From positions 119,471 to 183,470 of the forward strand of contig CAVVGA010000012.1 in assembly GCA_963747605.1 (NCBI GenBank): a stretch of DNA of 64,000 nucleotides, given 5' to 3'. This document shows positions 3,566-48,846 of the stretch, in pieces. The notes beneath the pieces are model-generated. The model had not been told where the DNA came from and did not search any database. It saw only the letters and a program-made list of their open reading frames with translations. Position numbers and translations under genes: made by a program. Position 1 is the stretch's first letter. Each line of letters begins with the position of its first letter. Source of the DNA: an uncultured Acidobacteriota bacterium (GTDB lineage: Bacteria > Acidobacteriota > Terriglobia > Acidiferrales > UBA7541).

Positions 3566-3954
3566 ATACGTCTCCAGGTAGCGCAGAGTTTGCGCGTGAT
3601 TTGCGATCCCGAAATGCTAATACCCGAAGTTGCTGGTTTTGCGCGAAGGGGTGAGGGCGCGGCACAGCTGGCAGGCTGTGCATACGCGAGCGCGGGAACA
3701 GTTATCCCGGCAAACGGCTTCCAGTAGCTTGATGGACTCCACCCCAAACGTTTTATTAAATTTATTAAAACTGATTTATATACGGCAACGGGGATATGTC
3801 AAGCGAAAAACTCGAGGTCATTGTGGGGTAGATGAGGGTAGGAGCCTTAGCTGCCAGGCGCGGGGCGGCGCGGCTGACGCCGAGCAGCGCCGAGCGAGAG
3901 GTTAGCGTTCCCAGGCCTCGGGCGGTTGGGCGCGAAGTGTGCTAGTTTTTAGCC

Positions 3955-5193
3955 GTGAAGTGCTCGGACAAATTGCGCGTGGTGGGATTGGCGGCCGCTG
4001 TGATGACCGCGATTCCGCCGGCTACTGTCGACGCGGTCGAGCATTCGGCGGAGGGCCAAGCCGCGCACTCAGTTGGCGCGCCGGCTGCGCAGGGCGTGGC
4101 GTCGCTGTTCGCGGAGGGGGAAGCAGCTTTGCGGGCTGGGGAATTGGACCGAGCGGCCGCTGCCTTCAGGAAAGTGCTGGCGGCGGATCCTGGCGCGGTC
4201 GGGGCTTATGCGAATTTGGGGGTGATAGCGATGCGGCGGCAGCAGTGGGCGCAGGCACTGGAATTGTTGCAGAAAGCGGAGCGGCTGGCACCGAACGTCG
4301 CGGGGATTCGTTTGAATATCGGACTCGTTTATTACCGGCAGAGCGAATTTCATGCGGCGATTGCGCCGTTCGAGTCGGTGCTGCGCGATCAGCCGGAGTC
4401 GGTGCAGGCGCGTTATCTGCTGGGACTTTGCTATTTCTTTACCGAAAAGTATGGCGACGCGGTGAATGCCTTGCAGCCGATCTGGGCGGAGGAGTCGCAG
4501 GACCTGAATTATCTGTATGTGCTGGGGAATGCCGCGAACAAGGCGGGGCAGAGCGACGTGGAGGAGCGCGCTCTGACGCGATTCGTGGAGCTGGGGCAGA
4601 ACACGGCGGAATATCATTTGTTGATGGGCAAGGCGGCGCTGAATCGCGAGGAGAATGATAAGGCGATCGCGGAATTGATGCAGGCGGCGCAGATGGATCC
4701 GCGGCTGCCGTTTGTACATTTTAATCTGGGGCTCGCTTATCTTGCGCGAGCGGATTTTGAGAAAGCACGCGACGAATTTTTGCAGGACGTGGAGATCGAG
4801 CCGGATGTGGCTTTCAATTACGACCGGCTGGGGGTGGTTTACGCGTATTTGCAAGATGATGCGAAGGCGGAGGCGAACTTCAAGCAGGCGCTGCATTTGG
4901 ATGCGCACCTTTCCAGTTCTTATTTCGGTTTAGCGCGGGTTTATCAGCGGCAGAGGAAGTTTTCGCAGGCGCTGCGGGGGGTGGATTCGGCTTTGGGCAT
5001 GGATGCAAATAACGCGAATTATCACAATTTGAAAGGGCAGATTTTGATGCGGTTGGGGAAGACGCAAGAGGCACAGAAGGAATTGGCGTCGGCTACGGAT
5101 TTGCTGAATGCCAGCCGCGAGCGGCGGCACAACGAGTTGAACGAAGGAGCTTTGCCCCAGCCGGAATTGACGGCGGAGCCGAAGGTGCAGTGA
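3955..5193 (+). CDS. secreted tetratricopeptide (TPR) repeat protein
   Basis: Intact 412-aa ORF (GTG start). It has a hydrophobic N-terminus (LRVVGLAAAVMTAIPPATVDA) followed by repeated 34-aa TPR-like units (AYANLGVIAMRRQQWAQALELLQKAERLAP, AFNYDRLGVVYAYLQDDAKAEANFKQALHLD, etc.). Confidence 0.8.
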   Translation: MKCSDKLRVVGLAAAVMTAIPPATVDAVEHSAEGQAAHSVGAPAAQGVASLFAEGEAALRAGELDRAAAAFRKVLAADPGAVGAYANLGVIAMRRQQWAQALELLQKAERLAPNVAGIRLNIGLVYYRQSEFHAAIAPFESVLRDQPESVQARYLLGLCYFFTEKYGDAVNALQPIWAEESQDLNYLYVLGNAANKAGQSDVEERALTRFVELGQNTAEYHLLMGKAALNREENDKAIAELMQAAQMDPRLPFVHFNLGLAYLARADFEKARDEFLQDVEIEPDVAFNYDRLGVVYAYLQDDAKAEANFKQALHLDAHLSSSYFGLARVYQRQRKFSQALRGVDSALGMDANNANYHNLKGQILMRLGKTQEAQKELASATDLLNASRERRHNELNEGALPQPELTAEPKVQ

Positions 5194-6203: not shown

Positions 6204-6302
6204 TTTTTGGGAGGCTCCGGATTCGTGTTGTGCGGAAAGAGCGCATCGGGCATTTGTAGCGGCGGTCGTTGGCGCGGCATTGGTTGTTGCTGCGCCACCG
6301 AT

Positions 6303-6378
6303 GGCGCACTTCAGTGCGCCGCTACGAAGGCCACGTCAAAGGCAAAGGCGCCCAGCTCAAGCTGGCCGCTACAAATGC
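6303..6378 (+). repeat. REP-like composite intergenic repeat (two GC hairpins, each followed by a GCTACRA tail)
   Basis: GGCGCACTTCAGTGCGCC-GCTACGAAGG-CCACGTCAAAGGCAAA-GGCGCCCAGCTCAAGCTGGCC-GCTACAAATG. A near-identical composite lies at 23689..23776. An inverted copy of the tail (CATTTGTAGCGGC) lies at 6251..6263. Confidence 0.6.
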
Positions 6379-6547
6379 AAATCCTTTGCACGCATTTTTC
6401 CGCGAACAGTTCAGCGGATAAGGCTACCATCAACTGCCTGGAGCGTCGCAAGTGGGTTCTGGGATTTCCGGGCGTGCGGATAGGTGCACGGCGCTGGGCG
6501 GTCGTGCTAATCTTTGGTGAAGTTTCGCGCGGTTTTCTGACGACTTT

Positions 6548-6587
6548 GCCTGGGTGGCGGAATAGCATACGCTGAGGACTTAAAATC
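6548..6587 (+). pseudogene. 5' half of an intron-less tRNA-Leu(UAA) (remnant / att-like copy)
   Basis: The sequence is GCCTGGG TG GCGGAATAGCATACGC T GAGGA CTTAAAA TC: acceptor 5' strand, Leu-type D arm, and anticodon stem plus loop with UAA. It matches exon 1 of the intact gene at 8056 at about 34 of 40 positions. It reads through the splice junction as CTT-AAAATC (no intron). Similarity stops 2 nt into the 3' strand of the anticodon stem. Confidence 0.6.
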
Positions 6588-6720
6588 GTATTTTTTGTTT
6601 CACGTGAAACATATAAATACAGCACAATCATATAGTTATCGACATTTTGTCGCGTTACGGTATCCTTACACAACTCTTTCACATTCTCGCTTTTTGAAGG
6701 AGTAGGGGAGGGCGTCCGTA

Positions 6721-7881
6721 ATGCCCGAGCAATACACCATCCTCGGTGGAAAAGTTCACGTCTACAAACGTCCTCACAGCACTCTCTGGCAGTGCTCCAC
6801 TTATTTCGCCGGCAAAAATCGTCGCACCAGCACAAAAGAAGAGAGTATCTCGAAAGCCAAAGAGGTTGCGGAGGATTGGTTTCTGCAGCTCCGCGGAAAA
6901 CTTCGCAGCGGAGAAATCAAGACAGAAAAAACTTTTCGCGAAGCGTCCGAACAATTCCTGCGCGAATACGACATTATCACGCAGGGGCAACGCAGCAAGG
7001 ACTATATCAGAGGCCAACACTCAAGGTCGCAGTTGCATCTGGTGCCGTTCTTCGGCGCTATGGGCCTTTCCGAAGTAACGGCCGGCAAGGTTCAGGAATA
7101 CCGCATTCACCGCCACGAGGAAACCCAGGCGAAACGCGGAAAACCGCCGGCTCACAACACCATGCATCAGGAAACCGTAACTCTTCGCCAGACCCTGAAA
7201 ACCGCCGTCCGTCACGGCTGGCTGGACCGCCTTCCCGATCTCTCCGAGCCGTACCGATCATCGCCGAAAATTTCGCACAGGGCGTGGTTCTCGCCGGAGG
7301 AATACAAAAAACTCTACGACGCCACGCGAAAGCGTGCACATCAACCAAAGCAGGCGCGCTTCCGGTGGGAATCGGAGCAGCTTCACGACTATGTTCTCTT
7401 CTCCGCAAACACGGGGCTCCGGCCCGATGAGGCACGGCGGCTGCAATTTCGCGACGTGACAATCGTTGAAGACGAAGCGAGCGGTCAGACCATCCTTGAA
7501 ATCGAAGTCAGAGGGAAGCGCGGTGTCGGGTACTGCAAGAGTATGACGGGCGCTGTGCGCCCGTTCGAACGCCTGAAAGCACGGCCCCGGCCGGCCGCAA
7601 CTGACGGTCCGCGGGAAGAAGGGAAGGGTGCTGAAACCGCAAAAACCGATTCGGCCAAACTCCGCCTGCCGCAGCCGACAGAGCTTATCTTTCCGAAATG
7701 GCAGCGTGAGATTTTCGACGCGGTTCTTGAAGAGGAAAACCTGAAGTTCGACAGGGAAGGGCGGCCGCGAACGGCTTACAGCCTGCGGCACACCTATATC
7801 TGTCTTCGCCTGATGGAAGGTTCCGACATCTACCAGATTGCCAAAAACTGCCGCACCAGCGTCGAAATGATCGAGAAATAG
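6721..7881 (+). CDS. tyrosine-type site-specific integrase, terminated by an in-frame TAG just before the expected catalytic Tyr
   Basis: Box I is NTGLRPDEARRLQFRDV and box II is AYSLRHTYICLRLMEG...NCRTSVEMIEK. A TAG follows at 7879..7881. The same frame then continues open for 42 codons (YAAHIKTNLDAAEIN...) to a TAA at 8008..8010. Confidence 0.85.
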   Translation: MPEQYTILGGKVHVYKRPHSTLWQCSTYFAGKNRRTSTKEESISKAKEVAEDWFLQLRGKLRSGEIKTEKTFREASEQFLREYDIITQGQRSKDYIRGQHSRSQLHLVPFFGAMGLSEVTAGKVQEYRIHRHEETQAKRGKPPAHNTMHQETVTLRQTLKTAVRHGWLDRLPDLSEPYRSSPKISHRAWFSPEEYKKLYDATRKRAHQPKQARFRWESEQLHDYVLFSANTGLRPDEARRLQFRDVTIVEDEASGQTILEIEVRGKRGVGYCKSMTGAVRPFERLKARPRPAATDGPREEGKGAETAKTDSAKLRLPQPTELIFPKWQREIFDAVLEEENLKFDREGRPRTAYSLRHTYICLRLMEGSDIYQIAKNCRTSVEMIEK

Positions 7882-8055
7882 TACGCGGCACACATCAAGA
7901 CGAATCTTGACGCCGCTGAAATCAACAAAATGAGACCACGGCTGAAAAAGAAACAGAACCAGCCGACGCGAAAGCTACCGCAACATCCGGCCCCGGAAAC
8001 CGACGTGTAAATTTCTGCCGGCTGCACTATGATGAGACCTGCAGCAGAAAGCCAC

Positions 8056-8385
8056 GCGGGCGTGGCGGAATGGCATACGCAGCGGACTTAAGGAAAACTT
8101 GAGTGCTCGCCGGGAAACCGGCGATGCAGAACTGCCCAAAGTCGGGGGAACCTGAAATGGCAATCCCGAGCCAAGCCTCGACGGAAATTCTCGTCAGGAA
8201 GGTGTAGAGACTAGACGGGCAGCGCCTAAACGCCGGACGTTCCGGGGCAGGGTGAAGGGATAGTCCAGACCGCAAACCCGACATCGAGCTGACAGCTCTT
8301 CGTCAGGGCGGCGAAAGCCGCGGACGGTAAGAAAATCCGCAGGGCTTCACAGCTCGTGTGGGTTCGACTCCCACCGCCCGCACCA
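8056..8385 (+). tRNA. tRNA-Leu(UAA) gene interrupted by a group I intron (exon 1 8056..8089, exon 2 8332..8385, CCA encoded)
   Basis: Joined exons give a canonical cloverleaf. Acceptor GCGGGCG/CGCCCGC, D arm GCG-GAATGGCATA-CGC, anticodon stem GCGGA/TCCGC, loop CTTAAAA (anticodon UAA). There is a long variable arm, T arm GTGGG-TTCGACT-CCCAC, discriminator A and CCA. Confidence 0.85.
8090..8331 (+). ncRNA. group I intron (tRNA-Leu(UAA)/IC3-like), 242 nt, inserted between U34 and A35
   Basis: P1 can form between ACTT|AAG (8086..8092) and CTTGAGT (8098..8104), with a U-G wobble at the 5' splice site. The last intron base is G (8331). There are GAAA-capped stems (CGCCGG-GAAA-CCGGCG, GGCGGC-GAAA-GCCGC). 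The core segments GGCAATCCCGAGCCAAGCC and GGAAGGTGTAGAGACTAGACGGGCAGCGCCTAAACG match, from memory, the conserved core of cyanobacterial/plastid tRNA-Leu introns. Confidence 0.8.
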
Positions 8386-8428
8386 TCCTTCTCGCGTCCC
8401 GTCTTCGCAATTCCCGTGAATTTCATCA

Positions 8429-8788
8429 TCACTCCGCCGCTACGGAAACCCGCGCTCGTTTACAGCCCCGCCGGCTCAGGCACAATTCTGCGATGGATCT
8501 ATGAAGATTCTGCCGCCTTAACATAGACCGGCTGCGCAACGATCTGTTTCCCCATAGCGTAAAACCACGCAACATCAGGGCCATAGTGAGGGCATTGGAC
8601 ACGAGGAAACCGAACTGGCCTGCCATCGCCGCGACTGAGAAACCGCACAAGGCGGCGAGCGCGCTGAGGACGAAGCCCATGCGGTTCTGATTTGTGACTA
8701 GCCAAGTCCCAGTCATGCCGAAGATCATCGTCATCCAGTCCAGGCCGTAATAGCTAGACAGGGACTCCAGAAAAGCATCAAACATCAA
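8429..8788 (-). CDS. small membrane protein, function unknown (possibly a truncated transporter fragment)
   Basis: 119-aa ORF with about three hydrophobic helices (DWMTMIFGMTGTWLV, GFVLSALAALCGFSVAAMAG, FLVSNALTMALML). The Arg-rich C-terminal 40 aa look non-native. It abuts the 3' end of the tRNA. Confidence 0.4.
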   Translation of the reverse strand: MMFDAFLESLSSYYGLDWMTMIFGMTGTWLVTNQNRMGFVLSALAALCGFSVAAMAGQFGFLVSNALTMALMLRGFTLWGNRSLRSRSMLRRQNLHRSIAELCLSRRGCKRARVSVAAE

Positions 8789-8993
8789 GCCTCACTACGT
8801 CATAGCCGATAGTCAAAGCTTAAGACAAAGAGATTACGGAACCATTAAGAGCGGAGATTTTGTCGCGAGCGCGGACGCGAAATGGGGTCACCGCACAACG
8901 GTGAGATTCATGAAACTGGCTAAGCTGCAAGAAACCTCTGTAACATTAATAGTTTGCGGAAAATAAGACGCTTTCTAAGACTGGGTGTTTCAA

Positions 8994-9009
8994 AATTAAC
9001 ATTATCACA
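8994..9009 (+). repeat. 16-nt exact direct repeat AATTAACATTATCACA (copy 1); on the minus strand it reads as an extended -10-like TGTGATAAT
   Basis: Identical 16-mer at 12048..12063. A 12-nt sub-match (ATTATCACATCG) lies at 10303..10314. Confidence 0.5.
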
Positions 9010-9203
9010 CCGGCGGTTGTTCTTGATTTGTCCTCGCCGCTGTAACTCACCAGGCTTTTGGCCTCTCTTGATAACACAATCTGTGATCTCACACCGCGAT
9101 GGCCTCGATATCGACTCTACGTCTGTATTCTTCAAGCTTCTTGGCGCACGAGTCACAACATGCTACGGTCCCCAAAGTTCGTGATGAATGTGGGGTACAG
9201 GCT

Positions 9204-9437
9204 ATGGAAAAAATTCCTGCAGAAGATCTTGGAAAGCGCCTGCCGGAAATTCTGGAACGGATCGCCCGCGGTGAGCATTTCACTATCACCGATCGCGGCA
9301 GGTCCGCCGCTGAGCTGGGGCCCGTCGAAGAACCAGTTCCGGCGAAGGCTGCTGTGGAAACGATCCTTGATATTCAAAGGCGCGTCAAACCGCTTGGTGT
9401 TCCTATGCGTGAGGCGATCGAAGAAGGCCGCGCGTGA
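9204..9437 (+). CDS. type II antitoxin, Phd/YefM-like (partner of VapC)
   Basis: 77 aa from the ATG at 9204 within ORF 9099..9437 (MEKIPAEDLGKRLPEILERIARGEHFTITDRGRSAAEL). Its stop overlaps the start of the downstream PIN gene (GTGA). Confidence 0.75.
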   Translation: MEKIPAEDLGKRLPEILERIARGEHFTITDRGRSAAELGPVEEPVPAKAAVETILDIQRRVKPLGVPMREAIEEGRA

Positions 9438-9844
9438 ATCTGGTTCTCGATGCCTCAATGGCGGCTTCCTGGTGCTTTCCGGACGAGCGAACCGACCTGA
9501 CGCAGCGGCTACTAAACGACCTGGCTGGCCCGGAAGCAGCCGCGGCCCCTCGAATGTGGGCCTACGAAAATCGCAACGTCATCCTTCGCGGCGTGCGGCA
9601 AGAACGCCTCGGACATAGAGATGCGGCGGCTTTTTTGGAGTCGCTTACAGCGTTGCAAATCCGCTTGCTTGACCCACCTTATAACGCAGTCTTTCAGGCT
9701 GCGGTCCGCTTCGATCTGAGTTTTTACGATGCAGCCTACCTAGAACTTGCTGTGCGGGAAAACTTGCCCCTGGCGACGCTGGACAAGCAACTGCGCCGTG
9801 CGGCATTGGCAGCTAACGTTGCCGTGTACGGAGAAGGCCGATAG
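9434..9844 (+). CDS. vapC: PIN-domain ribonuclease toxin VapC
   Basis: 136 aa. It has an N-terminal VLDAS acidic motif and FYDAAYLELA plus LATLD, typical of PIN/VapC. There is a 4-nt start/stop overlap with the antitoxin. Confidence 0.85.
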   Translation: MNLVLDASMAASWCFPDERTDLTQRLLNDLAGPEAAAAPRMWAYENRNVILRGVRQERLGHRDAAAFLESLTALQIRLLDPPYNAVFQAAVRFDLSFYDAAYLELAVRENLPLATLDKQLRRAALAANVAVYGEGR

Positions 9845-9850
9845 TTCTAA

Positions 9851-9881
9851 CGTTTGAAGTTCCAATTTGGAACCTCAAACG
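9851..9881 (+). terminator. strong hairpin downstream of vapC (possible terminator, no clear U-tract)
   Basis: CGTTTGAAGTTCC-AATTT-GGAACCTCAAACG, with 12 of 13 stem positions paired. Confidence 0.35.
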
Positions 9882-9960
9882 GGCCGGGTCATCGGCGGCC
9901 TGCGCGGTCTAGCTGATTCCGATCCCGGCTCGTACGACACAGTAGAGAATTAGCCCCAGC

Positions 9961-10287
9961 ATGAAAAGTACGTGCTTCTATTGCGACCTCCCGTTGCGCG
10001 ACCCCGATATACCGGACGCAGTCGCGCTGAGCTGGTTCGGCAGCCGTTCCGGCGGCCCGGGTTCACGAAAGCTCCTGCGATATTTAAGAACCACCACCGA
10101 GCATCTAATCCGCAAGACCGACGGCGGATTGGATGACCCATTAAATCTCACGCGCGCTCACAACTATTGCAACACCACTCGCGGAGAACGCTCAGTTTCT
10201 GAACACAAGGCTTACATATTGCGTTCTCTGTCTGACGGCTCTCACCCGTTTTCCGCATTTCAACCATCGTCGTTTCGCGCACGCTAA
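9961..10287 (+). CDS. small HNH-type endonuclease-like protein
   Basis: 108 aa. It has CFYC near the N-terminus and then TTEHLIRKTDGGLDDPLNLTRAHNYCN, i.e. the H...N...H/CxxC(N) pattern of HNH nucleases. Confidence 0.65.
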   Translation: MKSTCFYCDLPLRDPDIPDAVALSWFGSRSGGPGSRKLLRYLRTTTEHLIRKTDGGLDDPLNLTRAHNYCNTTRGERSVSEHKAYILRSLSDGSHPFSAFQPSSFRAR

Positions 10288-10302
10288 ATTCTCACCATCT
10301 TT

Positions 10303-10314
10303 ATTATCACATCG
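10303..10314 (+). repeat. ATTATCACATCG, third (partial) copy of the island repeat
   Basis: It shares 12 nt with 12055..12066. It lies between the convergent HNH and Sel1 genes. On the minus strand it reads CGATGTGATAAT. Confidence 0.35.
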
Positions 10315-10393
10315 AAATTTTGGACGCAGTTTCAACCACTGTGCAAGTCACCAAATTGAAAGCCGATTGTTAGACGAACGGGACGGAAACCTG

Positions 10394-12049
10394 TCACTTC
10401 CTGTCTAAGTGATTTTCTTCCAGGAATTCAGACACGTCGCGTGCGACCGCATCTCTTTGTTTTGTGTTCAGCTTCTTCTCAAGTGCCCCGTTATCACGTG
10501 GACAGTCTTTGTCGATGATGATGAGGCTCGGATGTGGTCCCTCGTCGGCACAGATTCTTAGCCAATAGTAGGCTTGCCTGTAGCGTTTGTGCTTCAGGGC
10601 GAACTCGCATAGACGGAATTGCGCGTGGTGGTTTCCCTGCGCGGCCGCGAGCGCATAAAGACGATTCGCCTCCTGTTTGTCAGCAACCACCCCGCTGCCA
10701 TCAAAGTACCAGTCCGCCATCACCGCTTGCGCGTCGCTGAATCCCTGACCTGACGCTTTCTTCATCAACGCCGGAGCATCTTCAGTGTCGGTCCGCTCGT
10801 AATAAGCGTCATAAGCGATCTCGAATTGCGCTGGTGCGTATCCCATAGCAGCCAACCTTTTACGCACGTACGATTCATCGATTAGGCCCATGCTGTCTTC
10901 ATACTTTTGGAGCTGTTCCCTGGCCTCCATATTGCCGTCCTGGGCGATGGGCAAAAGTATGTCTATCGCTTTTCTGTAATCACCCGCATGCAGTGCTTCC
11001 TCGCCATCTTGGATCGTGAAAGTTTTCGGTCTCAGGTACCACCATAAAGCTGTCGCACAAATGACCGACACGCCAATTCCGATTAAGGCGTTCCTCCGGT
11101 GTCGTTTCGGGCCCGGGACGTTCCAAAACGCAGAGCGAGGCTCGGTCTGGGCCTCGGTGCCTGGGCTGTTTTCCAGGAAATCATTCTCTGCCAAGATCGC
11201 CATAATGTCGGAACGGAGAGTCGTCAATAAAGCGTTTGGAAACCACCTAGACATTTTTGCCCACGCGGAAATACAACATGGTACTGCGCCAAGGAGAACG
11301 ACTGCGGTGAGCAACGTTACTACCCTGGCCCCGGTACCATCCTCACTTCCGAACAATTGAAATATCCCGGAGATTCCGACCAGGGACAGCGCGCTAATCG
11401 TCAGAATATTCCGTAGTTCAGACTTTCGTTCGATTGCCACATCGACCGAGGCAATATAAGGTGCTGGTTCCTCCGTCAGTTTCAGTGTTGGCGAAGGGGT
11501 GGTCTCCCGGACGGTCTTCAACCTAAACCTAGCCGATACGTCACACGCGCAAAGTGAATCGCGATAGACTTGCGTTCGGAATAGATATCGCTGATCGGCG
11601 TAGTCATTGATTTCCGCCCCACGCCCGGCAGGGAATCGCTCCGTCAGAAGCTCTTTAACTTGGTCCCGGACTTTCTTAACGAGGTCGGCACTCGGAGGGG
11701 TTGCAAGCCCTACAGAAAAAGCTTTCCGCGACGAAAAGGCAGCCGCTTCGGCCTTGTCCACCGCTTCGATAACTTCTGATCCGCCCTCCTCAAAAACATG
11801 GACCAGCCAAACGAATACAAACAACGAGCAAAATGCGAAGAAACTTGCGGTTCCCGCATTTTTCTGTGAGAACTGCTTGATCGTCTCTAACAGAACGCCG
11901 AAGAGGGCTCCAATTCCTAAGACTTTCTTCAACATGCGATGCCGCTCGGGTTTGATGAAGTCGAACGCATAGGTCGTCAAACGAACAGCGAGGGCACGAC
12001 CGGAGGTCCGCCCTGACAGTCCCCCTGCTCGGCAGAATATTTTCCGCAA
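10394..12049 (-). CDS. multi-pass membrane protein with C-terminal Sel1-like repeats, function unknown
   Basis: 551-aa ORF. The likely true start is M39 at 11935 (MLKKVLGIGALFGVLL). There are several hydrophobic helices. The C-terminus carries Sel1/TPR-like units (AQAVMADWYFDGSGVVADKQEANRLYALAAAQGNHHAQFRL). Confidence 0.7.
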   Translation of the reverse strand: MRKIFCRAGGLSGRTSGRALAVRLTTYAFDFIKPERHRMLKKVLGIGALFGVLLETIKQFSQKNAGTASFFAFCSLFVFVWLVHVFEEGGSEVIEAVDKAEAAAFSSRKAFSVGLATPPSADLVKKVRDQVKELLTERFPAGRGAEINDYADQRYLFRTQVYRDSLCACDVSARFRLKTVRETTPSPTLKLTEEPAPYIASVDVAIERKSELRNILTISALSLVGISGIFQLFGSEDGTGARVVTLLTAVVLLGAVPCCISAWAKMSRWFPNALLTTLRSDIMAILAENDFLENSPGTEAQTEPRSAFWNVPGPKRHRRNALIGIGVSVICATALWWYLRPKTFTIQDGEEALHAGDYRKAIDILLPIAQDGNMEAREQLQKYEDSMGLIDESYVRKRLAAMGYAPAQFEIAYDAYYERTDTEDAPALMKKASGQGFSDAQAVMADWYFDGSGVVADKQEANRLYALAAAQGNHHAQFRLCEFALKHKRYRQAYYWLRICADEGPHPSLIIIDKDCPRDNGALEKKLNTKQRDAVARDVSEFLEENHLDRK

Positions 12050-12063
12050 TTAACATTATCACA
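12048..12063 (+). repeat. 16-nt exact direct repeat AATTAACATTATCACA (copy 2), candidate promoter of the Sel1 gene when read on the minus strand
   Basis: Identical to 8994..9009. The reverse complement TGTGATAATGTTAATT contains TG-n-GATAAT. Confidence 0.5.
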
Positions 12064-12387
12064 TCGCAGAATTCGCCAGAATTATGGCCGCAATTTCCTT
12101 CGTCATTGCCTCAAGTGGAAGCACTGCCGGGAAAAGAATCTTCAGGTTCTTGCCGATGTCCACACGCATCCGGACAACTACATCAGTCAAAGTTCAATCG
12201 ACCAGCGAAATCCCATGATCCCGGTGAAGGGTCACACCGCCATAATCGTCGCTAATTTCGGGCGGACCGGTTGGTGGTCGCTTTCCACTGTCGGCGTATA
12301 CGAGTATCTGGGCGATTTCAAATGGCGCACGCACGGCGCATCCCAAAAACCTCGCCGGGTCAGTCTGGTTGCCTGGTGAATTTTGAA

Positions 12388-13785
12388 ATGAACGAGCCTG
12401 AAGCGCGTATTTCCCGAATCTCGAAAGTTCTCATTGACCGCGATCAGATGACGACGGACGCGGTATTGGCGCGGAGGAAACTGTACAGGGTCGCACTGCG
12501 GTGCGGACCCGACGTCGCGCGATCGCGCACTCTGCAGCTCGCCGTGCTGACAGCGGCCAACATTGCGAATCGCTGTTTTCCGGGCGCCGTCAAGATCGTG
12601 CTTGAGCCAAGCCTGAAGAACGCCTCGCTCCTGCTCTGGCCCTCACTCGAACAAACCTTCGGACAGACGCTCATCAGTCTTCTCGGGCCGGATGTGCTGA
12701 TATCGCCGGACAATTTCGAGCCGGATGGCCCGGTTCTGCTTTTCGGCGACGTTCCGTCCACGCCGCATGCGTTGCGCGTCACGTTCGACGGGTGGGTCGC
12801 GAAAGTCGGTCCCGCCGAAGCCGTAAGCCCCCTGCCTCAGCGGGAGTATTGCTCGCTGGCGGGCGTTCTGGCGGCCGCTCTGGCGATCGCCGAATTATTT
12901 TTTTCGTTCGCCGAGATCAGCATTGAAGCAACCCGACGAACCGTCGGACTGTCGCTGTGGCGACCCGACCTCGACATCAATGATCCAGCAGCGCTCGGAA
13001 TTCAGGTCCAATTTCTTCCGCGTGAAGTATGGGCCTTGGGCCTGGGACATCTCGGCAATGCTTATCTCTGGTCGCTCGCGACACTGCCGTATGCAGATCC
13101 GGGAACCGTTGAAGTGTCCCTGAACGATTTCGACAGGATCGAGCCCGACAACGCGGATACCAGCCTGCTTTTTGATGCCGGCGACGAAGGATCATACAAG
13201 ACGCGCGTATGTTGCCGGTGGCTTGAAGCCCGTGGCTTTCGGACCAGGCTGATCGAGCGCCCCTTCGATTCTAATTTCCGCTGCCGCATCGAGGAGCCCA
13301 GGCTGGCGCTTTGCGGTTTCGATTCGAATGAGGTGCGCAGAGAGCTTGCAACCGCCGAATTTCGTCGCGTCATGGAAAGCGGTTTGGGTGGAACCGCAAA
13401 CAACTTCGATACGATCAGTTTTCACACGCTGCCGAACCCGCGCAGCATCGAAGAATTGTGGCCTGTCCCCACGGCAGATGAAAAAAATGCACAAGCGCAA
13501 GAGCTGGAAAGAATGGCGCGGGAAAACCCTGCTTACGCCCGGCTCGATGACAATGATTGCGGCCGTGCCGCGCTCGCGGGAAAATCCGTCGCCGTCCCGT
13601 TCGTCGGCGCCGCCGCCGCGACTATAGTTCTTGCCGAGGCAATCAGGCTCTTACATGGAGGACCGGCGTACACCGATATCAAGCTCGTGCTTTCAGACCT
13701 CACCAGGAGATTCGCCCAAACGGAGCGCAACTATGCGGCGCAGGATCTCGCGGGATTTAAATATTCAGCAGGCCGGGTGCAGTGA
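12388..13785 (+). CDS. E1-like / ThiF-family adenylyltransferase, orphan (no Ubl, E2 or JAB partner seen)
   Basis: The ORF track gives 12271..13785; the likely start is the ATG at 12388 (MNEPEARISR). The Rossmann motif is VWALGLGHLGNAYLW. It is followed by LNDFDRIEPDNADTS, KTRV, CGFDSNEVRR and AVPFVGAAAATIVLAEAIRLL, as in E1 adenylation domains. The N-terminal ~200 aa resemble an inactive half-domain. Confidence 0.7.
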   Translation: MNEPEARISRISKVLIDRDQMTTDAVLARRKLYRVALRCGPDVARSRTLQLAVLTAANIANRCFPGAVKIVLEPSLKNASLLLWPSLEQTFGQTLISLLGPDVLISPDNFEPDGPVLLFGDVPSTPHALRVTFDGWVAKVGPAEAVSPLPQREYCSLAGVLAAALAIAELFFSFAEISIEATRRTVGLSLWRPDLDINDPAALGIQVQFLPREVWALGLGHLGNAYLWSLATLPYADPGTVEVSLNDFDRIEPDNADTSLLFDAGDEGSYKTRVCCRWLEARGFRTRLIERPFDSNFRCRIEEPRLALCGFDSNEVRRELATAEFRRVMESGLGGTANNFDTISFHTLPNPRSIEELWPVPTADEKNAQAQELERMARENPAYARLDDNDCGRAALAGKSVAVPFVGAAAATIVLAEAIRLLHGGPAYTDIKLVLSDLTRRFAQTERNYAAQDLAGFKYSAGRVQ

Positions 13786-13958
13786 GTCCGCAGTCCATGC
13801 AATCGTTCTTCGCGCGCCAGCCGCTCCGAGCCGACGAGGACAACAACTCTGGCGTCGTCGGCTTCACCGACATCGCCAGCGTGCACAGGTATCCATAAGA
13901 ATTTTGAACATACCGTGCTCCTCGATCCGTTAAACGAACTCAGTATTGGTGGAGAAAT

Positions 13959-14543
13959 CTATGACCGCGCGAATGCCAGCAGCGGACCGATGTCGTGGTT
14001 GTCGGCGGCCTGCAGTGCAGTGATATAGCGCTGGCGCATCGCGCCGGCATCCTGCAGGTTGGCGCGGCCCCACGAGAACCGCTCACCGCCGAGCTTCATC
14101 ACCAGAAGATCCGCCATCAGGCGGGCATGGCGGCCGTTGCCGTTCGGAAAGGGATGAATCTGCACCAGCCGGTGATGGAAGCGCACGGCGATCTCGTCGG
14201 GCGGATATGCCTTGTACTCGATCCACGCCTTGGTGTCGTCAAGCAATTGGCGTAGCGCGACGGGAATCTCATAGAAGGGAATCCCGAGATTGCGTTCGCT
14301 CGTCCTGAACTCGCCCGCCCAGCGCCACACGTCGCCGAGCATGCGCCCGTGCAGATCCTTGATGAATTTCTCGCTCAGCGGATCACGAGGGCGGTTGAGC
14401 GCCCAGTCCTGCGCGCGCGCGATATTCTCCTGCTCGGCCTCGTTCAGTTCGCGGCGATAGGCGATATGCGCGGGGATCAGGTCGCGCTTTTCCTCTGGCG
14501 TCAGCGGTGTCGCATCGTCCGGCTGCTCGAAAAGATCGCTCAA
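13959..14543 (-). CDS. Fic-domain protein ('mobile mystery protein B' type)
   Basis: 194 aa with the Fic motif HPFPNGNGRHARL. It sits directly downstream of an XRE-type partner. Confidence 0.85.
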   Translation of the reverse strand: MSDLFEQPDDATPLTPEEKRDLIPAHIAYRRELNEAEQENIARAQDWALNRPRDPLSEKFIKDLHGRMLGDVWRWAGEFRTSERNLGIPFYEIPVALRQLLDDTKAWIEYKAYPPDEIAVRFHHRLVQIHPFPNGNGRHARLMADLLVMKLGGERFSWGRANLQDAGAMRQRYITALQAADNHDIGPLLAFARS

Positions 14544-14546
14544 CGG

Positions 14547-15003
14547 CTAGTCCCAGAACAGTCGCGGATTCGTCTCGCGCACGATTTCATCGAGCCGCGC
14601 TTCGGCGTTTTTCGCCGGCACCTTCTGGTCCTCCAGCAACATCGAGTGCTCGACCGGCCCCCGGCGCTTCTGCGCGAACGCGCGCGCGCGCGTCGCGGAT
14701 GGTGCTTTCCAGCGGTTTGTTCGGCACGAGCGCATACACAAGCGTGCAGTCGAGCGCCTCGGCCACGCGCCGCAGCGTCGCCAGTTCGATGGTGCCCTTC
14801 GCCTCGGATTGTTCGAGTGCCACGAGGGAAGGCTGCTTGATCCCCAGCCGCTTCGCGAGCTGCGCTGTTGACATGCCGAGCGCCTCCCGGATAGCCTTGA
14901 TCCAGCCGCGGACGGGCGCAGCATAGCGGCTCGCCGGGCCCATTTCCCTGAAACGTTCGTCGAGTTGCGAGCGGGATTGAGTAGCAAGTCTGGCTTTTTT
15001 CAT
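14547..15003 (-). CDS. XRE-family HTH protein ('mobile mystery protein A' type), one frameshift
   Basis: The N-terminus lies in ORF 14587..15003 (GWIKAIREALGMSTAQLAKRLGIKQPSLVALEQ). The C-terminus lies in ORF 14547..14987 (VEHSMLLEDQKVPAKNAEARLDEIVRETNPRLFWD). The frames switch near the (GC)n run at about 14680..14700. Confidence 0.75.
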
Positions 15004-15012
15004 AGGTCACAT

Positions 15013-15084
15013 CCTATTGCTAGCATATATTCCAATAGACCATAACCTATCGTAACAGTGTATGTCAATAGGCTATAGGCTATC
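15013..15084. promoter_or_regulatory. AT-rich region with about six iterated CCTAT/ATAGG half-sites upstream of the XRE/Fic pair (candidate operator/promoter)
   Basis: CCTATTG (15013), CCAATAG (15032), CCTAT (15046), CAATAGG (15066), and tandem TAGGCTA-TAGGCTA (15069..15082). Confidence 0.3.
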
Positions 15085-15448
15085 AGAATTTTAATCGGGC
15101 TCTCTCGCCGCCAAGCAGAGCATTTTGCAAAACCTTATAATAAGGACCATTTGTTGCGTGCCCGGCTTGTCGTCGGCCGGGCTTTACGCGCCCTTCGGGC
15201 TCCCCGAGCCTCTCGTCTCGGCCATCCGGTGACAATCCCTCACGCGAGAAAGCGGGGCGTGCCGCCCCCTCCCGTCAAGCACTGGACGCGAAGCGCGGGC
15301 CGAGGGGTGTCCCCCGCCTTCCTCCGCGATGCTCCGTGCAGGCCGGGTGATCCCCCTCCCCTCGTCCCGGTGCTGGACGGAAGTCCCCGCTCATTGGCGC
15401 TGGCCTAGCAGGGTTGCATGCCAACCCCGTCAGCAAGGAGAGAAGCCC

Positions 15449-15814
15449 GTGAGTGATGAGAAAGCAAAACAGATTGCGGAAATGAACGACCGTTTCCGGC
15501 TGAATTTCTACGTGCCGTGTTTCGGGCCCCGGGCCGTTCCCGGACACATTGTGTGCACCGCCGGGATCGCGGCGCTGCCGCCGGAGACGCAGATATCGAT
15601 CTGGGCGCAAGTTGCAGACTTTGACGATTTCACGGAAGACGACATCTACGGCGAGCACGATTTCGGAGCTTTCAGAATGGAAGGCGTCCCGGAAAAGATT
15701 TTCTGGAAGATCGACTATTACGCTGACAAATCCTGCGCGACCGGCTCCGAAGATCCTGCCGATCCGGCACAGACGTTCAGCGTGCTCACCATCATGCTGG
15801 CGTCGGAGTATTGA
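15449..15814 (+). CDS. DUF3768-family protein (common on plasmids/ICEs)
   Basis: GTG start at 15449, preceded by AAGGAGAGA. The sequence SDEKAKQIAEMNDRFR...GEHDFGAF...FWKIDYYADKSCATGSEDPADPAQTFSVLTIMLASEY matches my memory of DUF3768 proteins. Confidence 0.85.
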   Translation: MSDEKAKQIAEMNDRFRLNFYVPCFGPRAVPGHIVCTAGIAALPPETQISIWAQVADFDDFTEDDIYGEHDFGAFRMEGVPEKIFWKIDYYADKSCATGSEDPADPAQTFSVLTIMLASEY

Positions 15815-15817
15815 GTC

Positions 15818-15961
15818 ATGACCGCAGAAAACGCCGCCTTCAATCCCGCCGTCGCCGGCATCGCCATGGCCGTCGCCACCGCCGCCACCACCATCACCGA
15901 CAACAGCACCAGCAGCAACAGCACCACCACCATCACCACCATGATGATGGAGAAATCGTAA
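15818..15961 (+). CDS. possible 47-aa Thr/Ser/Ala-rich micro-ORF in a (CAN)n low-complexity tract
   Basis: MTAENAAFNPAVAGIAMAVATAATTITDNSTSSNSTTTITTMMMEKS. The ATG lies 3 nt after the DUF3768 stop. Its TAA overlaps the next ATG (TAATG). It is not in the ORF track (shorter than 60 aa). Confidence 0.2.
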   Translation: MTAENAAFNPAVAGIAMAVATAATTITDNSTSSNSTTTITTMMMEKS

Positions 15962-16275
15962 TGGACAACTACCGCACTGAACGGCTGACATGGCAGGGAA
16001 TCGTTATCGAAGTCCGCTACGACCCGGACTGGCTTGAGTCTTACCGCGAGACCTACGGTTATCCCCTCGCCCATCTTGAAATCGAATCAATCACTCCGGC
16101 GAAGGCGCCGCTGCCGATGACCGAGACCGGCTACCGCTCATGGTTCGGAGCGCCTGCCGATTTGGAGTCAGACGGCGGCCCTGTCGAATTCGTGCGCCTG
16201 TGGCTCGAACATGAAGCCCGGTCCGATTCATGGAAAGCCGCGCAGGCAGAGCGCCGCCAGCTCACGCTTTTCTGA
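15961..16275 (+). CDS. hypothetical protein (104 aa)
   Basis: MDNYRTERLTWQGIVIEVRYDPDWLESYRETYGYPLAHLEIE... has ordinary composition from the ATG at 15961. The upstream part of ORF 15811..16275 is a His/Arg/Gln-rich artefact-like extension. Confidence 0.55.
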   Translation: MDNYRTERLTWQGIVIEVRYDPDWLESYRETYGYPLAHLEIESITPAKAPLPMTETGYRSWFGAPADLESDGGPVEFVRLWLEHEARSDSWKAAQAERRQLTLF

Positions 16276-16598
16276 TTTGTCCAACGGTAATCGCAGCCCG
16301 TCCGTCGTTTCCCGCGATGCGGACGTGCGGCCCAGCACACCGTGAAGATTGTCGTCACTCCTCCCGACACTTACTTACCGTGATTTTGGCGCGATACATC
16401 CGCCTTCTTTTTCCCACCCTTTCTCCTGGGCACGGCTTCGGGATAATTCCTGCGCCCGGCGGTTTCGGTGCCTCTGCTTTTCCGGTTCCTCCCGTAAATC
16501 GTCGGGTCCCTCCCGAAATGCGGCCCCTCGCCTTGGGAGCAGTATCCGCTCGCTTTTGGGGTGCCCCATCGAAGAGGGCAGAAAAAGGAGAAACACAG

Positions 16599-17024
16599 AT
16601 GTATCTCAACACGATCCAAATCATCGGCTTTGTCGGAAAAGATCCGGAGCGACGCCAGCTTCAGGGCAAGGACGCCGCGTACACCGTCTTCTCGGTCGCC
16701 ACGCAGCGTTCATGGAAAAACGCGCAAGGCGAGTGGCAAAAGCGGACCGAATGGCACCGCGTTGTGGCGTGGAGCAAGCTCGGCGAAATCGCTACCGCGC
16801 AGCTCCGCAGCGGCGATCACGTTCACGTCCAGGGCCGACTTGTCAGCAGCACATACGACAAGTACTACGGCAACGGCAAGAAACCGACTGTCGTGAAGCA
16901 AACGTTCTGGCAGGTTCGCGCCGACGCGATGCGCAAACTGAATCGGGCTGAATCACACCCCGGTTCAGCGCCCGGCGCTGCAAACCAAGGTCCGTCGAAC
17001 GACGCAGACGCAGCCCCTTTCTGA
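16599..17024 (+). CDS. ssb: single-stranded DNA-binding protein
   Basis: ATG at 16599 preceded by AAAGGAG. The OB-fold sequence is MYLNTIQIIGFVGKDPERRQ...TEWHRVVAWSKLGEIA...GDHVHVQGRLVSSTY. The tail is acidic and ends in PF. Confidence 0.85.
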   Translation: MYLNTIQIIGFVGKDPERRQLQGKDAAYTVFSVATQRSWKNAQGEWQKRTEWHRVVAWSKLGEIATAQLRSGDHVHVQGRLVSSTYDKYYGNGKKPTVVKQTFWQVRADAMRKLNRAESHPGSAPGAANQGPSNDADAAPF

Positions 17025-17040
17025 CATTCCCGCAAACCGG

Positions 17041-17074
17041 GGCCTCGGCATCCGCCGGGGCCCTTGTTTTATTT
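17041..17074 (+). terminator. rho-independent terminator after ssb
   Basis: GGCCTCGGC-ATCC-GCCGGGGCC (9-bp stem with one G-U) followed by CTTGTTTTATTT. Confidence 0.6.
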
Positions 17075-17439
17075 CAGCGCCCGAAACATCCCACTTTCGC
17101 GCGCATGGGCGCGTGGAGCACTTGACCGCTGCGCGCGCCCGCTAAATCGACAGCCCGTCCGCTGAACTCATCAGCGCGGAAGTTCAGCCCCGAACACTGC
17201 GCCGCGATTTTCTTTTTTTCCGTTTCCTTCTGTCTGTTGTCAATCCTTGGCTCAGTTTGCCGGACCTGCCGCCGTCGTCAACGGGCGCCCGCGCCAGGCA
17301 ACCGTGTAACCCGTTGACCCCGGCGCCATACCGGTCCGGCCTTTTCCTCGTCATCGACCGCAACCAGGGAAAGGAAAAACCATGACCACTACGCAACCCG
17401 AACCGTTCCAAGAGCGGCACCGGCGGGCTCGTCACAGCC

Positions 17440-18498
17440 TTGCGTCCGGTCCCTCGCCGCGTGCCGCACTTCTTTTCGAACCTGCTCCCCGAAGGACATC
17501 TCCGCCCATATTTGGCAAAGCTGGCCGAGGTCAAGCCCGAGCGTGAATTCTTTTTGCTCGCCGTCCTGGGCGCCGACCTGCCCGGCGCGCTCGTCGTCAC
17601 GCCGCTTGAAAGCGACGCGTATGAAGGCGACGCTCATGACGCCGCCGGCGGCGGCGATCATCATGATCGTCCCCCCAAAACCGCTCTGCGGTTTTCTCTC
17701 GCCGGCGTGCAGTTGAAGTTTTCCGCCGTCATGGAAGCTTCCGGCGGTCTCACGGTTCCAGCCGACGGCATGGGTGGCTCCTGGATTGTCAAACTTCCCT
17801 CTGCCCGCTTTCCCGCCGTCCCTGAAAATGAATTTGTCATGCTTGAGCTTGCGCGGCGCGTCGGCATCGCCGTGCCGCCCAATCGCCTGATCGATATGGC
17901 AAAAATAAAAGGACTGCCGGAAGAAACCCGGACGACGAGAGGCAACGCGCTTGCCGTGCAGCGGTTCGACCGCCTCCCCGGCGGCGACCCCGTTCACATG
18001 GAGGATTTCGCGCAGGTGTTCGGACTCTTTCCCGACGACAAGTACGGCCACCGCAGCTATGCCAATATCGCTTCCGTTCTCTGGGCGGAAAGTGGCGAGG
18101 AGGCCACCTACGAGTTTGTCCGCCGACTCGTTTTCTCCGTGCTGATCGGCAATGCTGACATGCATCTCAAGAACTGGTCGCTTCTCTATCCCGACCGGCG
18201 GACGCCCGTTCTGTCGCCGGCCTACGATTTTGTTGCAGCGCTGCCGTACATTCCCGGCGACACACTTGCCCTGGCTTTCGGCGGCAGCCGCAGTCTTAAC
18301 GAAATCACAACCGACCAGATGCGGAGCTTTGCCGACACTGCAAGAATTCCGGCAAGCCCGCTCTGGCAGATTGCGGTCGAGACCGCAGAGCGCACGGTCG
18401 CGAGCTGGAAAATGCTCGAACTGGCGGACCGGCTCCCTAAAGAAATGCGTGCCTCCATCGACAAACAGATTCTGACGGTCGCCGCCACCATAAAGTGA
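17440..18498 (+). CDS. HipA-family Ser/Thr kinase toxin, N-terminally short, no HipB/HipS neighbour
   Basis: HFFSNLLPEGHLRPYLAKL, FSLAGVQLKFS, and NADMHLKNWSLLYPD (kinase catalytic loop). An ATG with an RBS at 17382 is in another frame, so either there is a frameshift near 17420..17430 or the start is non-ATG. In either case only ~20-30 aa precede the LLPEG motif. Confidence 0.8.
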   Translation: MRPVPRRVPHFFSNLLPEGHLRPYLAKLAEVKPEREFFLLAVLGADLPGALVVTPLESDAYEGDAHDAAGGGDHHDRPPKTALRFSLAGVQLKFSAVMEASGGLTVPADGMGGSWIVKLPSARFPAVPENEFVMLELARRVGIAVPPNRLIDMAKIKGLPEETRTTRGNALAVQRFDRLPGGDPVHMEDFAQVFGLFPDDKYGHRSYANIASVLWAESGEEATYEFVRRLVFSVLIGNADMHLKNWSLLYPDRRTPVLSPAYDFVAALPYIPGDTLALAFGGSRSLNEITTDQMRSFADTARIPASPLWQIAVETAERTVASWKMLELADRLPKEMRASIDKQILTVAATIK

Positions 18499-18706
18499 CG
18501 AGAAATGTCGGGACGACAAAGCGATTACAATTCCGTCTCTGACGATACTAAGCACAAATATCATCCTGAATATAAATGACAGGATCGACTGCGGTGCTTA
18601 GGCAGACCTTTTCAGACCGTCCGAAGGAGCGCTCGTCTACAAGCTGTTCATCGGCGCGCAGCATCACACGAACGTCAGCCAGGGACTGACCGATCAGGAA
18701 AACGAT

Positions 18707-18729
18707 GTCGACCCCCACCCCGGGCACCA
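18707..18729 (+). pseudogene. putative 3'-terminal remnant of a tRNA (T-loop, T-stem 3' strand, acceptor 3' strand, ACCA)
   Basis: GTCGACC CCCAC CCCGGGC A CCA. The T-stem strand CCCAC is identical to that of the intact tRNA-Leu. CCCGGGC pairs (one G-U) with GCCTGGG of the 5' remnant at 6548 and not with the intact gene's acceptor. Confidence 0.4.
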
Positions 18730-23655: not shown

Positions 23656-23688
23656 TCGAGGCTCCCTGGGGATTGCTTGCGCAAAAAT

Positions 23689-23776
23689 GGCGCACTGAAG
23701 TGCGCCGCTACGACGGCCAAGTCAAATTCCAATTCAAATTCAAAGGCGCCCAGCTAAAGCTGGCCGCTACAAATTC
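23689..23776 (+). repeat. REP-like composite intergenic repeat (second full copy)
   Basis: GGCGCACTGAAGTGCGCC-GCTACGACGG-CCAAGTCAAATTCCAATTCAAATTCAAA-GGCGCCCAGCTAAAGCTGGCC-GCTACAAATTC. Confidence 0.6.
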
Positions 23777-23826
23777 AAAAACAGAGTTAGCTGCTTCGTC
23801 TCGTTCCGCAATTCATTCACGGGAAT

Positions 23827-48728: not shown

Positions 48729-48846
48729 GGGCACGGCATGCCGTGCCCCTAGGACGCCGAGATTTTGCGACGGTTGTCGAGCTTCGATCGCTGGCTGCCG
48801 CCACGGCGATGGCGCACTGCAATGCGCCGCTACGAAGTCAAAATCG
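48729..48846 (+). repeat. two REP-like hairpins with CTAGGA/GCTACGA tails
   Basis: GGGCACGGCATGCCGTGCCC-CTAGGACG (48729..48756) and GGCGCACTGCAATGCGCC-GCTACGAAGTCAAAATCG (48811..48846). Confidence 0.5.

Follow-up and report, generated by a model that had tools for sequence, protein, structure and literature searches.

A tRNA-Leu(UAA) gene interrupted by a 242-nucleotide (nt) group I intron lies at positions 8056-8385 of the window, the whole 64-kb stretch of DNA analysed here, which derives from an uncultured member of the Acidobacteriota. Comparison with syntenic relatives makes it likely that this gene came on an island carrying a tyrosine integrase, that a resident intronless tRNA-Leu(UAA) gene was broken by the insertion, and that intron, tRNA and integrase travelled together. 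Joint travel is suggested by the content of the insertion, which holds the integrase and a complete foreign tRNA-Leu(UAA) gene between the two fragments of the resident gene. The original prediction, that intron and host tRNA moved as a unit within a mobile island, is supported by this split resident gene and by the foreign character of the intron-bearing one.

A probable integrase island within the resident tRNA-Leu(UAA) gene

The closest named homologs of the ribokinase adjoining the locus belong to Ca. Acidiferrales/Acidoferrales, and no exactly matching protein is on record. Four relatives keep the OMP-TPR-ribokinase synteny, with ribokinases 86-94% identical to that of the window, and three of them (L369, L370 and L372/L373) have an intronless tRNA-Leu(UAA) gene at the corresponding position. 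The window and L369 are colinear at 82% identity over 5.7 kb, and colinearity with the relatives breaks off in the anticodon loop of this gene, exactly at the C of AAAATC (position 6587). Nucleotides 1-40 of the resident gene (6548..6587, forward strand), ending in ...GGACTTAAAATC, form the left end of the island and are 93% identical to the gene of L369, L370 and L372. Its nucleotides 67-88, running from the T-loop to CCA (TCGACCCCCACCCCGGGCACCA; 18708..18729, forward strand), form the right end and are 100% identical to the relatives; this 3' fragment surfaced only when the relatives' sequence was used as the query. The two ends of the destroyed resident gene are separated by an insertion of 12.1 kb (6588-18707). 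At the left junction, AAAATC|gtattt, there is no tRNA 3' half, i.e. the target was not regenerated, and no copy of resident nucleotides 41-66 occurs anywhere in the window.

The intron-bearing gene within the insertion differs from the resident one. Its acceptor stem is GCGGGCG/CGCCCGC, compared to GCC(C/T)GGG/CCCGGGC in the resident gene, and its anticodon stem is GCGGA/TCCGC, compared to GAGGA/TCCTT in the resident type of the relatives. The 22-nt resident 3' end differs at five positions from that of the functional gene. The 3' end of the functional gene has no second copy within the window, and between exon 2 and the resident-type 3' part identity reaches only 69-73%. Exons 1 and 2 pair with each other and not with the resident fragments. 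These features, together with the intronless genes of the relatives, indicate that the lineage formerly had an intronless tRNA-Leu(UAA) gene beside the ribokinase gene, that the 12.1-kb insertion split its nucleotides 1-40 from 67-88, and that the complete intron-bearing gene of the island would have taken over from it.

The insertion resembles the known tRNA-targeting islands (Islander/TIGER; anticodon-loop class), in which a tyrosine integrase lies beside a split target tRNA gene whose fragments mark the island ends. It likewise has an integrase at one end, a split tRNA target with fragments at both ends and an empty site in relatives. As a textbook rule, however, such islands regenerate their target, a rule from which the window island departs: the target is not rebuilt by fusion, and a separate, complete intron-bearing tRNA gene of the same anticodon is supplied. 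A literature search brought up the preprint of Williams 2020 and no description of an island carrying an intron-split tRNA gene. We regard an island that replaces its target instead of regenerating it as a variation on the known tRNA-targeting islands. The empty-site comparison indicates that an integrase island can deliver an intron-bearing tRNA gene while destroying an intron-free resident.

L369, the closest syntenic relative, has another tyrosine integrase (PF00589, 427 aa; 2734-4103) directly against the 3' end of its intronless tRNA-Leu(UAA) gene, which makes the same tRNA gene a hot spot for at least two island families. IS110 and IS3 elements lie at the intronless gene of L370.

Structure and conservation of the group I intron

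ARAGORN in intron mode called a tRNA-Leu(taa) gene at 8056..8385 with a 242-nt intron at 8090..8331, split between nucleotides 34 and 35. When spliced, exon 1 (8056..8089, 34 nt, ending in U34) and exon 2 (8332..8385, 54 nt), both on the forward strand, make up an 88-nt tRNA whose cloverleaf is of perfect Leu type, with its long variable arm, anticodon UAA and an encoded CCA, exactly at the coordinates originally predicted; the acceptor strand GCGGGCG of exon 1 pairs with exon 2. By contrast, ARAGORN in default mode made no tRNA call across the whole window, and an Rfam scan at gathering thresholds gave no match. With permissive filters, the Rfam model Intron_gpI (RF00028) matched 8080..8288 with 39 bits (E=1.7e-8 on a 551-nt region), a match that spans P1 and its U.G pair. 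The proposed covariance-model check thus gave a significant E-value, whereas the score stays under the gathering cutoff of 50 bits.

The helices P1 to P9 could be drawn by hand with the Rfam alignment as a guide, all on the forward strand. P1 (8086-8092/8098-8104) pairs ACUU at the exon end and AAG of the intron with CUUGAGU, placing the splice-site U-1 opposite G as the original prediction had proposed. P2 (8105-8113/8118-8127) is capped by a GAAA loop (8114-8117), and the core is built of P3 (8132-8137/8217-8222), P4 (8142-8146/8165-8169), P5 (8151-8152/8159-8160), P6 (8170-8171/8202-8203) with P6a (8176-8183/8192-8198), P7 (8207-8213/8261-8266) and P8 (8223-8227/8250-8254). P9 (8269-8272/8325-8328) encloses P9b (8308-8312/8317-8321) with a second GAAA loop (8313-8316), and the last intron base is the omega-G at 8331. 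The terminal G and the GAAA-capped stems had likewise been foreseen. The conserved P3-P4-P6 and P7-P8 core, the P3/P7 pseudoknot and the G-binding pair in P7 are all present, and the intron contains no open reading frame (ORF). The minimum free energy fold of the intron alone (z = -4.1) recovered P1, P2, the long-range P3, P6a, P8, P9 and P9b unaided.

Pairs were counted over 89 Leu introns aligned with MAFFT, and the splice-site U.G is kept in all 89. P1 is canonical in 92% of cells and P2 in 93%, the latter with 156 cells changed on both sides. P3 is 99.6% canonical with a TA<->CG switch in 29 sequences, and P5 is 100% canonical with 31 cells changed on both sides. P7 is also 100% canonical, with AT<->GC changes in seven sequences, all four combinations being allowed by the search pattern. 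In P8 the figure is 87% (AT<->GC in 37), in P9 90% and in P9b 92%, with 16 and 19 cells changed on both sides, respectively. P4 and P6 are 100% canonical and invariant, whereas P9a is restricted to the lineage of the window. Shifting the 3' partner by one or two columns reduced pairing to 0-55% in nearly all helices. The same architecture in 89 aligned homologs, the U.G pair in each of them, and the compensatory changes in P2, P3, P5, P7, P8, P9 and P9b exclude a chance origin. Altogether, the Rfam match, ARAGORN and covariation confirm that 8056-8385 holds an IC3-like group I intron between U34 and A35 of a tRNA-Leu(UAA) gene. Its fold is well supported, and from it we infer catalysis.

In the precursor, the exon-1 end ACUU and the adjoining AAG would pair with the internal guide CUUGAGU to form P1, with the U.G pair at the cleavage site. 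Free guanosine, bound at the G120-C176 pair of P7 next to the bulged A119, would attack 3' of U34. The terminal G242 would next occupy the G site, and exon ligation, aided by re-formation of the anticodon stem, would yield mature tRNA-Leu(UAA). The gene looks functional. A simple scan upstream of the tRNA found no sigma-70-like promoter, a result that is uninformative for this phylum.

Distribution of the intron family

A genome collection was scanned with a pattern covering both P7 strands, and 123 loci were then examined. The same intron family occurs in at least 120 species, mostly Alphaproteobacteria with many Acidobacteriota; Gammaproteobacteria, Binatia, Chloroflexia, Bacteroidota, Gemmatimonadota and one actinobacterium are minor hosts among the matches listed. 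Intron boundaries were set by a junction rule, which demands a U as the last base of exon 1, a G as the last base of the intron and an anticodon stem that is restored by joining the exons. This rule was adopted because the intron placement of ARAGORN was often 1-4 nt off, giving calls such as 'Phe', 'Ser', 'Stop' and 'Val'. Full enumeration of splice sites and a loose anticodon-stem rule were both dropped as far too permissive. The junction rule solved 113 of the 123 loci; the rest include Bdellovibrionales, Latescibacteria, Chitinophagaceae and Altimarinota. Of the solved loci, 89 (the window included) are Leu(UAA) introns at 34/35 and 24 are Arg, Thr or Asn copies. Arg(CCU) introns at 36/37 account for 16 loci, mostly in Alphaproteobacteria, and the further hosts are Thr(GGU), Thr(UGU) in Massilia and Thiobacillus, Arg(UCU) in Vibrio agarilyticus and Asn(GUU) at 33/34 in Tsukamurella.

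Among the matches listed, the nearest relatives of the window intron are copies from Terriglobia, with 84-85% full-length identity. In a neighbor-joining tree, all 16 acidobacterial copies form a single clade with the window intron and one 'Binatia' metagenome-assembled genome. The ribokinase homologs and these Terriglobia introns support the earlier impression of an Acidobacteria-like, non-cyanobacterial host, and with at least 120 species carrying the family such a host is not unusual. Family members score 39-52 bits with Intron_gpI, at or below the Rfam cutoff, and are unseen by default tRNA finders, so that carrier genomes appear to lack an essential tRNA. The Rfam intron model contains no bacterial seed sequences and needs a threshold of 18-20 bits (bioRxiv 10.1101/2020.01.27.920355), a weakness that we also meet here.

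A broad IC3 core pattern was set aside as a family search, being saturated on phage contigs and uninformative. This pattern (GGTGYAGAGACTNGACGG) matched at least 120 IMG/VR viral contigs (L004-L123), so closely related intron cores are abundant in phages. In Carnimonas nigrificans (L178, 3956-4104), the surroundings of the intron-bearing tRNA-Leu gene include CRISPR repeats (Rfam CRISPR-DR4), no more than ~600 nt away.

Relation to cyanobacterial and other tRNA introns

The 3' half of the Anabaena intron was taken from PMC6035260 Supplementary Data 1, and a pattern derived from it was verified and then used on metagenomes. It yielded 112 loci, 106 of which solve as Leu(UAA) introns at 34/35; these metagenome loci served as the cyanobacterial-type set. 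Identities were computed on core columns with the exons and both search-pattern regions masked. By this measure the window intron is 0.85 identical to acidobacterial Leu introns, 0.74 to other non-cyanobacterial Leu introns, 0.65 to Arg/Thr/Asn tRNA introns and 0.58 to cyanobacterial-type Leu introns. In addition, cyanobacterial-type introns score ~80 bits with Rfam, compared to 39-52 for the window family.

The window intron shares with the Anabaena tRNA-Leu(UAA) intron ('Leu.3Ug') the tRNA, the U34/A35 site, the IC3-type architecture and the lack of an ORF. They also have in common the J6/7-P7-P3' and J8/7-P7' motifs, the CAAA(G/C)CC after P7 and a GAAA-capped P9 hairpin, and the published 3' half from Anabaena agrees with the window at 82 of its 106 positions, mostly in the conserved junctions. 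However, the host of the window intron is an acidobacterium, its gene lies on an island, and its core identity to the cyanobacterial type is lower than that to the Arg/Thr/Asn introns. The suggested closeness to the cyanobacterial core thus stands for subgroup, site and junction motifs, whereas a core identity of 58% speaks against it. By these identities the window intron is outside the cyanobacterial sequence cluster, with which it shares site, subgroup and core motifs. The tree is unrooted and would fit a common origin with the cyanobacterial intron as well as separate ones.

Arg(CCU), Thr, Asn and Arg(UCU) introns are caught by the same search pattern as the Leu family and have ~65-69% masked-core identity to it. 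They differ in the tRNA and the position within the loop, and fall into separate neighbor-joining groups. Proteobacterial tRNA introns known before, namely those of Agrobacterium tRNA-Arg(CCU) and Azoarcus tRNA-Ile, are attributed to Reinhold-Hurek & Shub 1992 and Paquin 1999 in PMC4033280 and PMC2504315. Bacterial tRNA group I introns have been described in reviews as mostly cyanobacterial with few alpha- and beta-proteobacterial cases (PMC4033280), and signs that bacterial introns pass horizontally from one species to another have been called scarce (PMC3984707). A later survey mapped 5,292 intron-split tRNA genes in different bacterial phyla and distinguished 21 types, with Leu.3Ug as the classical type found across phyla and Leu.3Cg in Proteobacteria only (Williams 2020, bioRxiv 10.1101/2020.01.27.920355). 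The window intron is of the same Leu.3Ug type, and this survey also noted the weakness of the Rfam model; unlike the present analysis, it reports no integrase or island with an intron-bearing gene and no disrupted intronless resident copy. The window intron is a new member of this known class of tRNA group I introns, and its non-cyanobacterial occurrence is not new. A tRNA-Leu(UAA) intron in a gamma-proteobacterium was reportedly described by Vepritskiy et al. in J Bacteriol in 2002, a report that we do not use as evidence.

The integrase family and its recurrence in other genomes

The integrase of the window (6721..8013, forward strand, 430 codons) is a pseudogene with a weak match to Pfam Phage_int_SAM_5. 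A TAG codon at 7879-7881 stands where its relatives have the first Tyr of a conserved MIEKYYAAH motif. The family has more than 7,300 homologs, and its intact members, of ~430 aa, are common in Terriglobia. Homology with all acidobacterial relatives of the intron locus stops at 8385, the 3' end of the tRNA, and an integrase-like ORF directly upstream is the only flanking feature that they have in common. Searches with tblastn found the integrase beside 13 of the 123 family loci, all of them Leu(UAA). In each case it directly precedes the tRNA gene in the same orientation, and five Alphaproteobacteria have it at full length. Wherever an integrase locus has enough upstream DNA, as in the window, a 5' tRNA piece resembling exon 1 occurs ~1.45-1.5 kb before the intron-bearing gene and terminates in GGACTTAAAATC, the junction expected of an anticodon loop that lacks an intron. 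At three more alphaproteobacterial loci, such a 5' piece is present without an integrase.

A second sampling, by integrase instead of by intron, gave four independent contexts. In P0022 (Terriglobia, many contigs), a broken Leu(UAA) 5' piece is followed by an intact integrase, a 48-nt gap and a tRNA-Leu(UAA) gene with a 219-nt intron; no resident 3' fragment was found within 10 kb in these contigs. In P0087 and P0043, a broken Leu(CAA) 5' piece (GGACTCAAAATC) is followed by the integrase and then by a tRNA-Leu(CAA) gene with a 228- or 238-nt intron, which has C at position -1. By contrast, P0094 (L378) is arranged in the classical way: the integrase begins 108 nt after an intact tRNA-Leu(CAA) gene without an intron, the target having been regenerated by the island. 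Within the family, regeneration was seen only here. The four contexts place the crossover of this integrase family in the anticodon loop and indicate that the replacement tRNA matches the anticodon of the displaced gene. This match between destroyed and carried isoacceptor (UAA with UAA, CAA with CAA) suggests selection rather than accident.

The intron-bearing tRNA-Leu(CAA) genes at L377 (2878-3191) and L379 (2857-3180), with C at -1 and a P1 of ACTC|AG...CTTGAGT, lie downstream of an acidobacterial-type integrase. Leu.3Cg is proteobacterial only in the survey of Williams 2020, whereas these two loci come from the acidobacterial-type integrase family. The islands of the P0022 type also carry PIN, Rv1352-like, GmrSD and second-integrase genes.

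Weighing the alternative explanations

Several observations weigh against arrival on an integrase island as proposed here, or limit its reach. As a pseudogene, the integrase suggests that the island is probably fixed in place, and no core repeat of an attachment (att) site could be defined. On its right side the island stops in the T-loop rather than the anticodon loop, and together with the missing nucleotides 41-66 this argues against a single clean integration; two elements plus a deletion may explain it. Other loci have resident and island tRNAs with compatible acceptor stems, and an island-borne exon 2 is accordingly resolved only in the window. The intron tree tracks the host phylum, and transfer may thus be mostly within phyla. 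Moreover, the inventory of tRNA-Leu(UAA) genes of the host covers the window only, so a copy may exist elsewhere in the genome. Finally, the intron scores under the Rfam cutoff, and its splicing is inferred from the sequence.

The serious competitor, to which we give somewhat less than even weight, is that the 12.1 kb consists of two elements, an anticodon-loop island with the integrase and the intron-bearing tRNA gene and a separate T-loop island, that entered the resident tRNA gene before nucleotides 41-66 were deleted. The anticodon loop and the T-loop are the two classical sublocations of integrase crossover, and the two breakpoints fall just there; in L369, moreover, the different integrase (PF00589) abuts the 3' end of the intronless gene. 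No second integrase was recognised in 8386-18707, however, where the ORF at 17389-18564 has no Pfam match, and a copy of nucleotides 41-66 is nowhere in the window. We consider it unlikely that the mobile unit comprised only integrase, promoter, exon 1 and intron (~1.8 kb), with the AAAATC of an intronless tRNA-Leu anticodon loop as its insertion site. Splicing would then join exon 1 of the element to exon 2 of the resident and heal the gene. If the integrase were lost afterwards, an ordinary intron-bearing gene would remain, and the intron would spread without a homing endonuclease. The junctions fit such a unit (left end ...GGACTT-AAAATC-gta, 3' splice site ...G-AAAATC-C), as do the compatible acceptor stems of resident and functional genes in L124, L155 and L357 and L129 and L221, where a 5' piece precedes the intron-bearing gene by ~200 nt and an integrase is absent. 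In the window, however, exon 2 differs from the resident type and would form no stem with the resident 5' part, whose own 3' end is found 10.3 kb further on. At the other loci, with their compatible acceptor stems, a smaller unit of this kind may be at work. The affinities of exon versus intron gave no clear signal in L204 or in L158.

That the intron-bearing gene is native and vertically inherited, with islands merely inserted beside it, is very improbable for the window: the syntenic relatives are intronless with another acceptor stem, and fragments of that same gene flank the insertion. This explanation would account for an intron phylogeny that tracks the host phylum, for the ~76 of 89 Leu family loci without an integrase, and for homology with relatives that ends exactly at the tRNA 3' end, as at an integration hot spot. 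It was rejected after the empty-site comparison. Equally rejected was a 1.5-kb integrase-only element (S1) that duplicates exon 1, since synteny identifies the upstream piece as the resident gene and the empty site has no intron. A decayed intron that no longer splices, in a locus reduced to a tRNA pseudogene, is barely credible. The Rfam score and the adjoining pseudogene would fit decay, whereas the core helices, the U.G pair and the omega-G are intact, the family is under clear structural constraint and the exons give a perfect cloverleaf; with the resident gene destroyed, the island-borne copy is probably needed. Compared to these explanations, arrival of intron, tRNA and integrase on one island best accommodates the fragments, the empty sites and the recurrence of the arrangement.

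A possible role of the intron in the island strategy

We put forward, tentatively and as a rather doubtful proposal, that the intron is a working part of the island strategy, providing target immunity of the island's own tRNA gene and addiction of the host to it. The integrase family would recombine within the anticodon-loop DNA of intronless tRNA-Leu genes, at a core of ...GGACT(T/C)AAAATCC..., and islands of the window type would destroy the resident gene and supply their own tRNA-Leu of the same anticodon. Since the intron splits the integrase target in DNA and RNA splicing restores the tRNA, the island gene would be immune: it would contain no att site and could not be targeted anew. To decode UUA/UUG, the host would then rely on the island. 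As a corollary, recombination or loss of the integrase at such sites would spread an ORF-less intron without a homing endonuclease. To our knowledge, the mobility of ORF-less group I introns has long been unexplained, and the window locus offers a testable route for their horizontal spread.

Plasmid-borne copies of the intron-bearing gene

A blastn search of plasmids gave 1,277 matching records. Bradyrhizobium plasmids carry an intact tRNA-Leu(UAA) gene with a 204-nt intron at the same site, and hundreds of Enterobacteriaceae plasmids carry another complete intron-bearing tRNA-Leu(UAA) gene. On pUSDA76 of B. elkanii (L003, 3567-4247), the N-terminal 143 codons of an integrase of the same family run straight into the intron at about its position 27. 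In this truncated copy, exon 1 and the 5' strand of P1 are deleted and exon 2 is intact, followed by a 'TrlF family AAA-like ATPase' and a RelE/HTH pair.

The enterobacterial type is represented by E. coli plasmid NZ_CP083484 (L002, 5001-5301) and the chromosome of E. coli AR_0013 (L356, 4001-4320), in which the tRNA-Leu(UAA) gene has a group I intron of ~214 nt. It lies between a small hypothetical gene and a tmrB-like ATPase gene beside aac(3)-IId, in an ISCfr1/IS26 context. At >=99% identity, this aac(3)-IId-linked copy occurs in 636 of 5,426 complete E. coli genomes (about 12%), in 589 plasmid and 82 chromosomal places; in Enterobacteriaceae and Acinetobacter, about 1,270 plasmids have it. 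RefSeq has nothing annotated at this tRNA-Leu(UAA) gene. Its nearest relatives are the alphaproteobacterial L142, L146, L125 and L242, and what may be a degenerate 5' piece (...GCGGACTTAAAAAG) is located ~170 nt upstream.

Island cargo and repeats in the window

Downstream of the tRNA gene, the island cargo (8386..18707) comprises, by Pfam, a PnuC-like fragment, a PIN toxin, a small HNH protein, and Sel1-repeat, ThiF/E1-like, Fic/DOC and SSB-domain proteins. Besides the ORF at 17389-18564 (reverse strand), that at 15275-15991 (reverse strand) has no Pfam match. This stretch has no homology to the syntenic relatives.

Two kinds of repeats occur elsewhere in the window. Hairpin-rich repeats of ~100 nt (GGCGCACTnnAGTGCGCCGCTACGA..., GGCGCCCAGCTnAAGCTGGCCGCTACAAAT) at 6279-6381, 23665-23779 and 48787-48837 are 71-88% alike; they look like dispersed REP-like elements, distinct from the island ends. 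Between 46575 and 47622, six copies of a ~46-nt unit, 61-72% alike and spaced by 150-360 nt, probably represent a repeated protein domain inside a gene.

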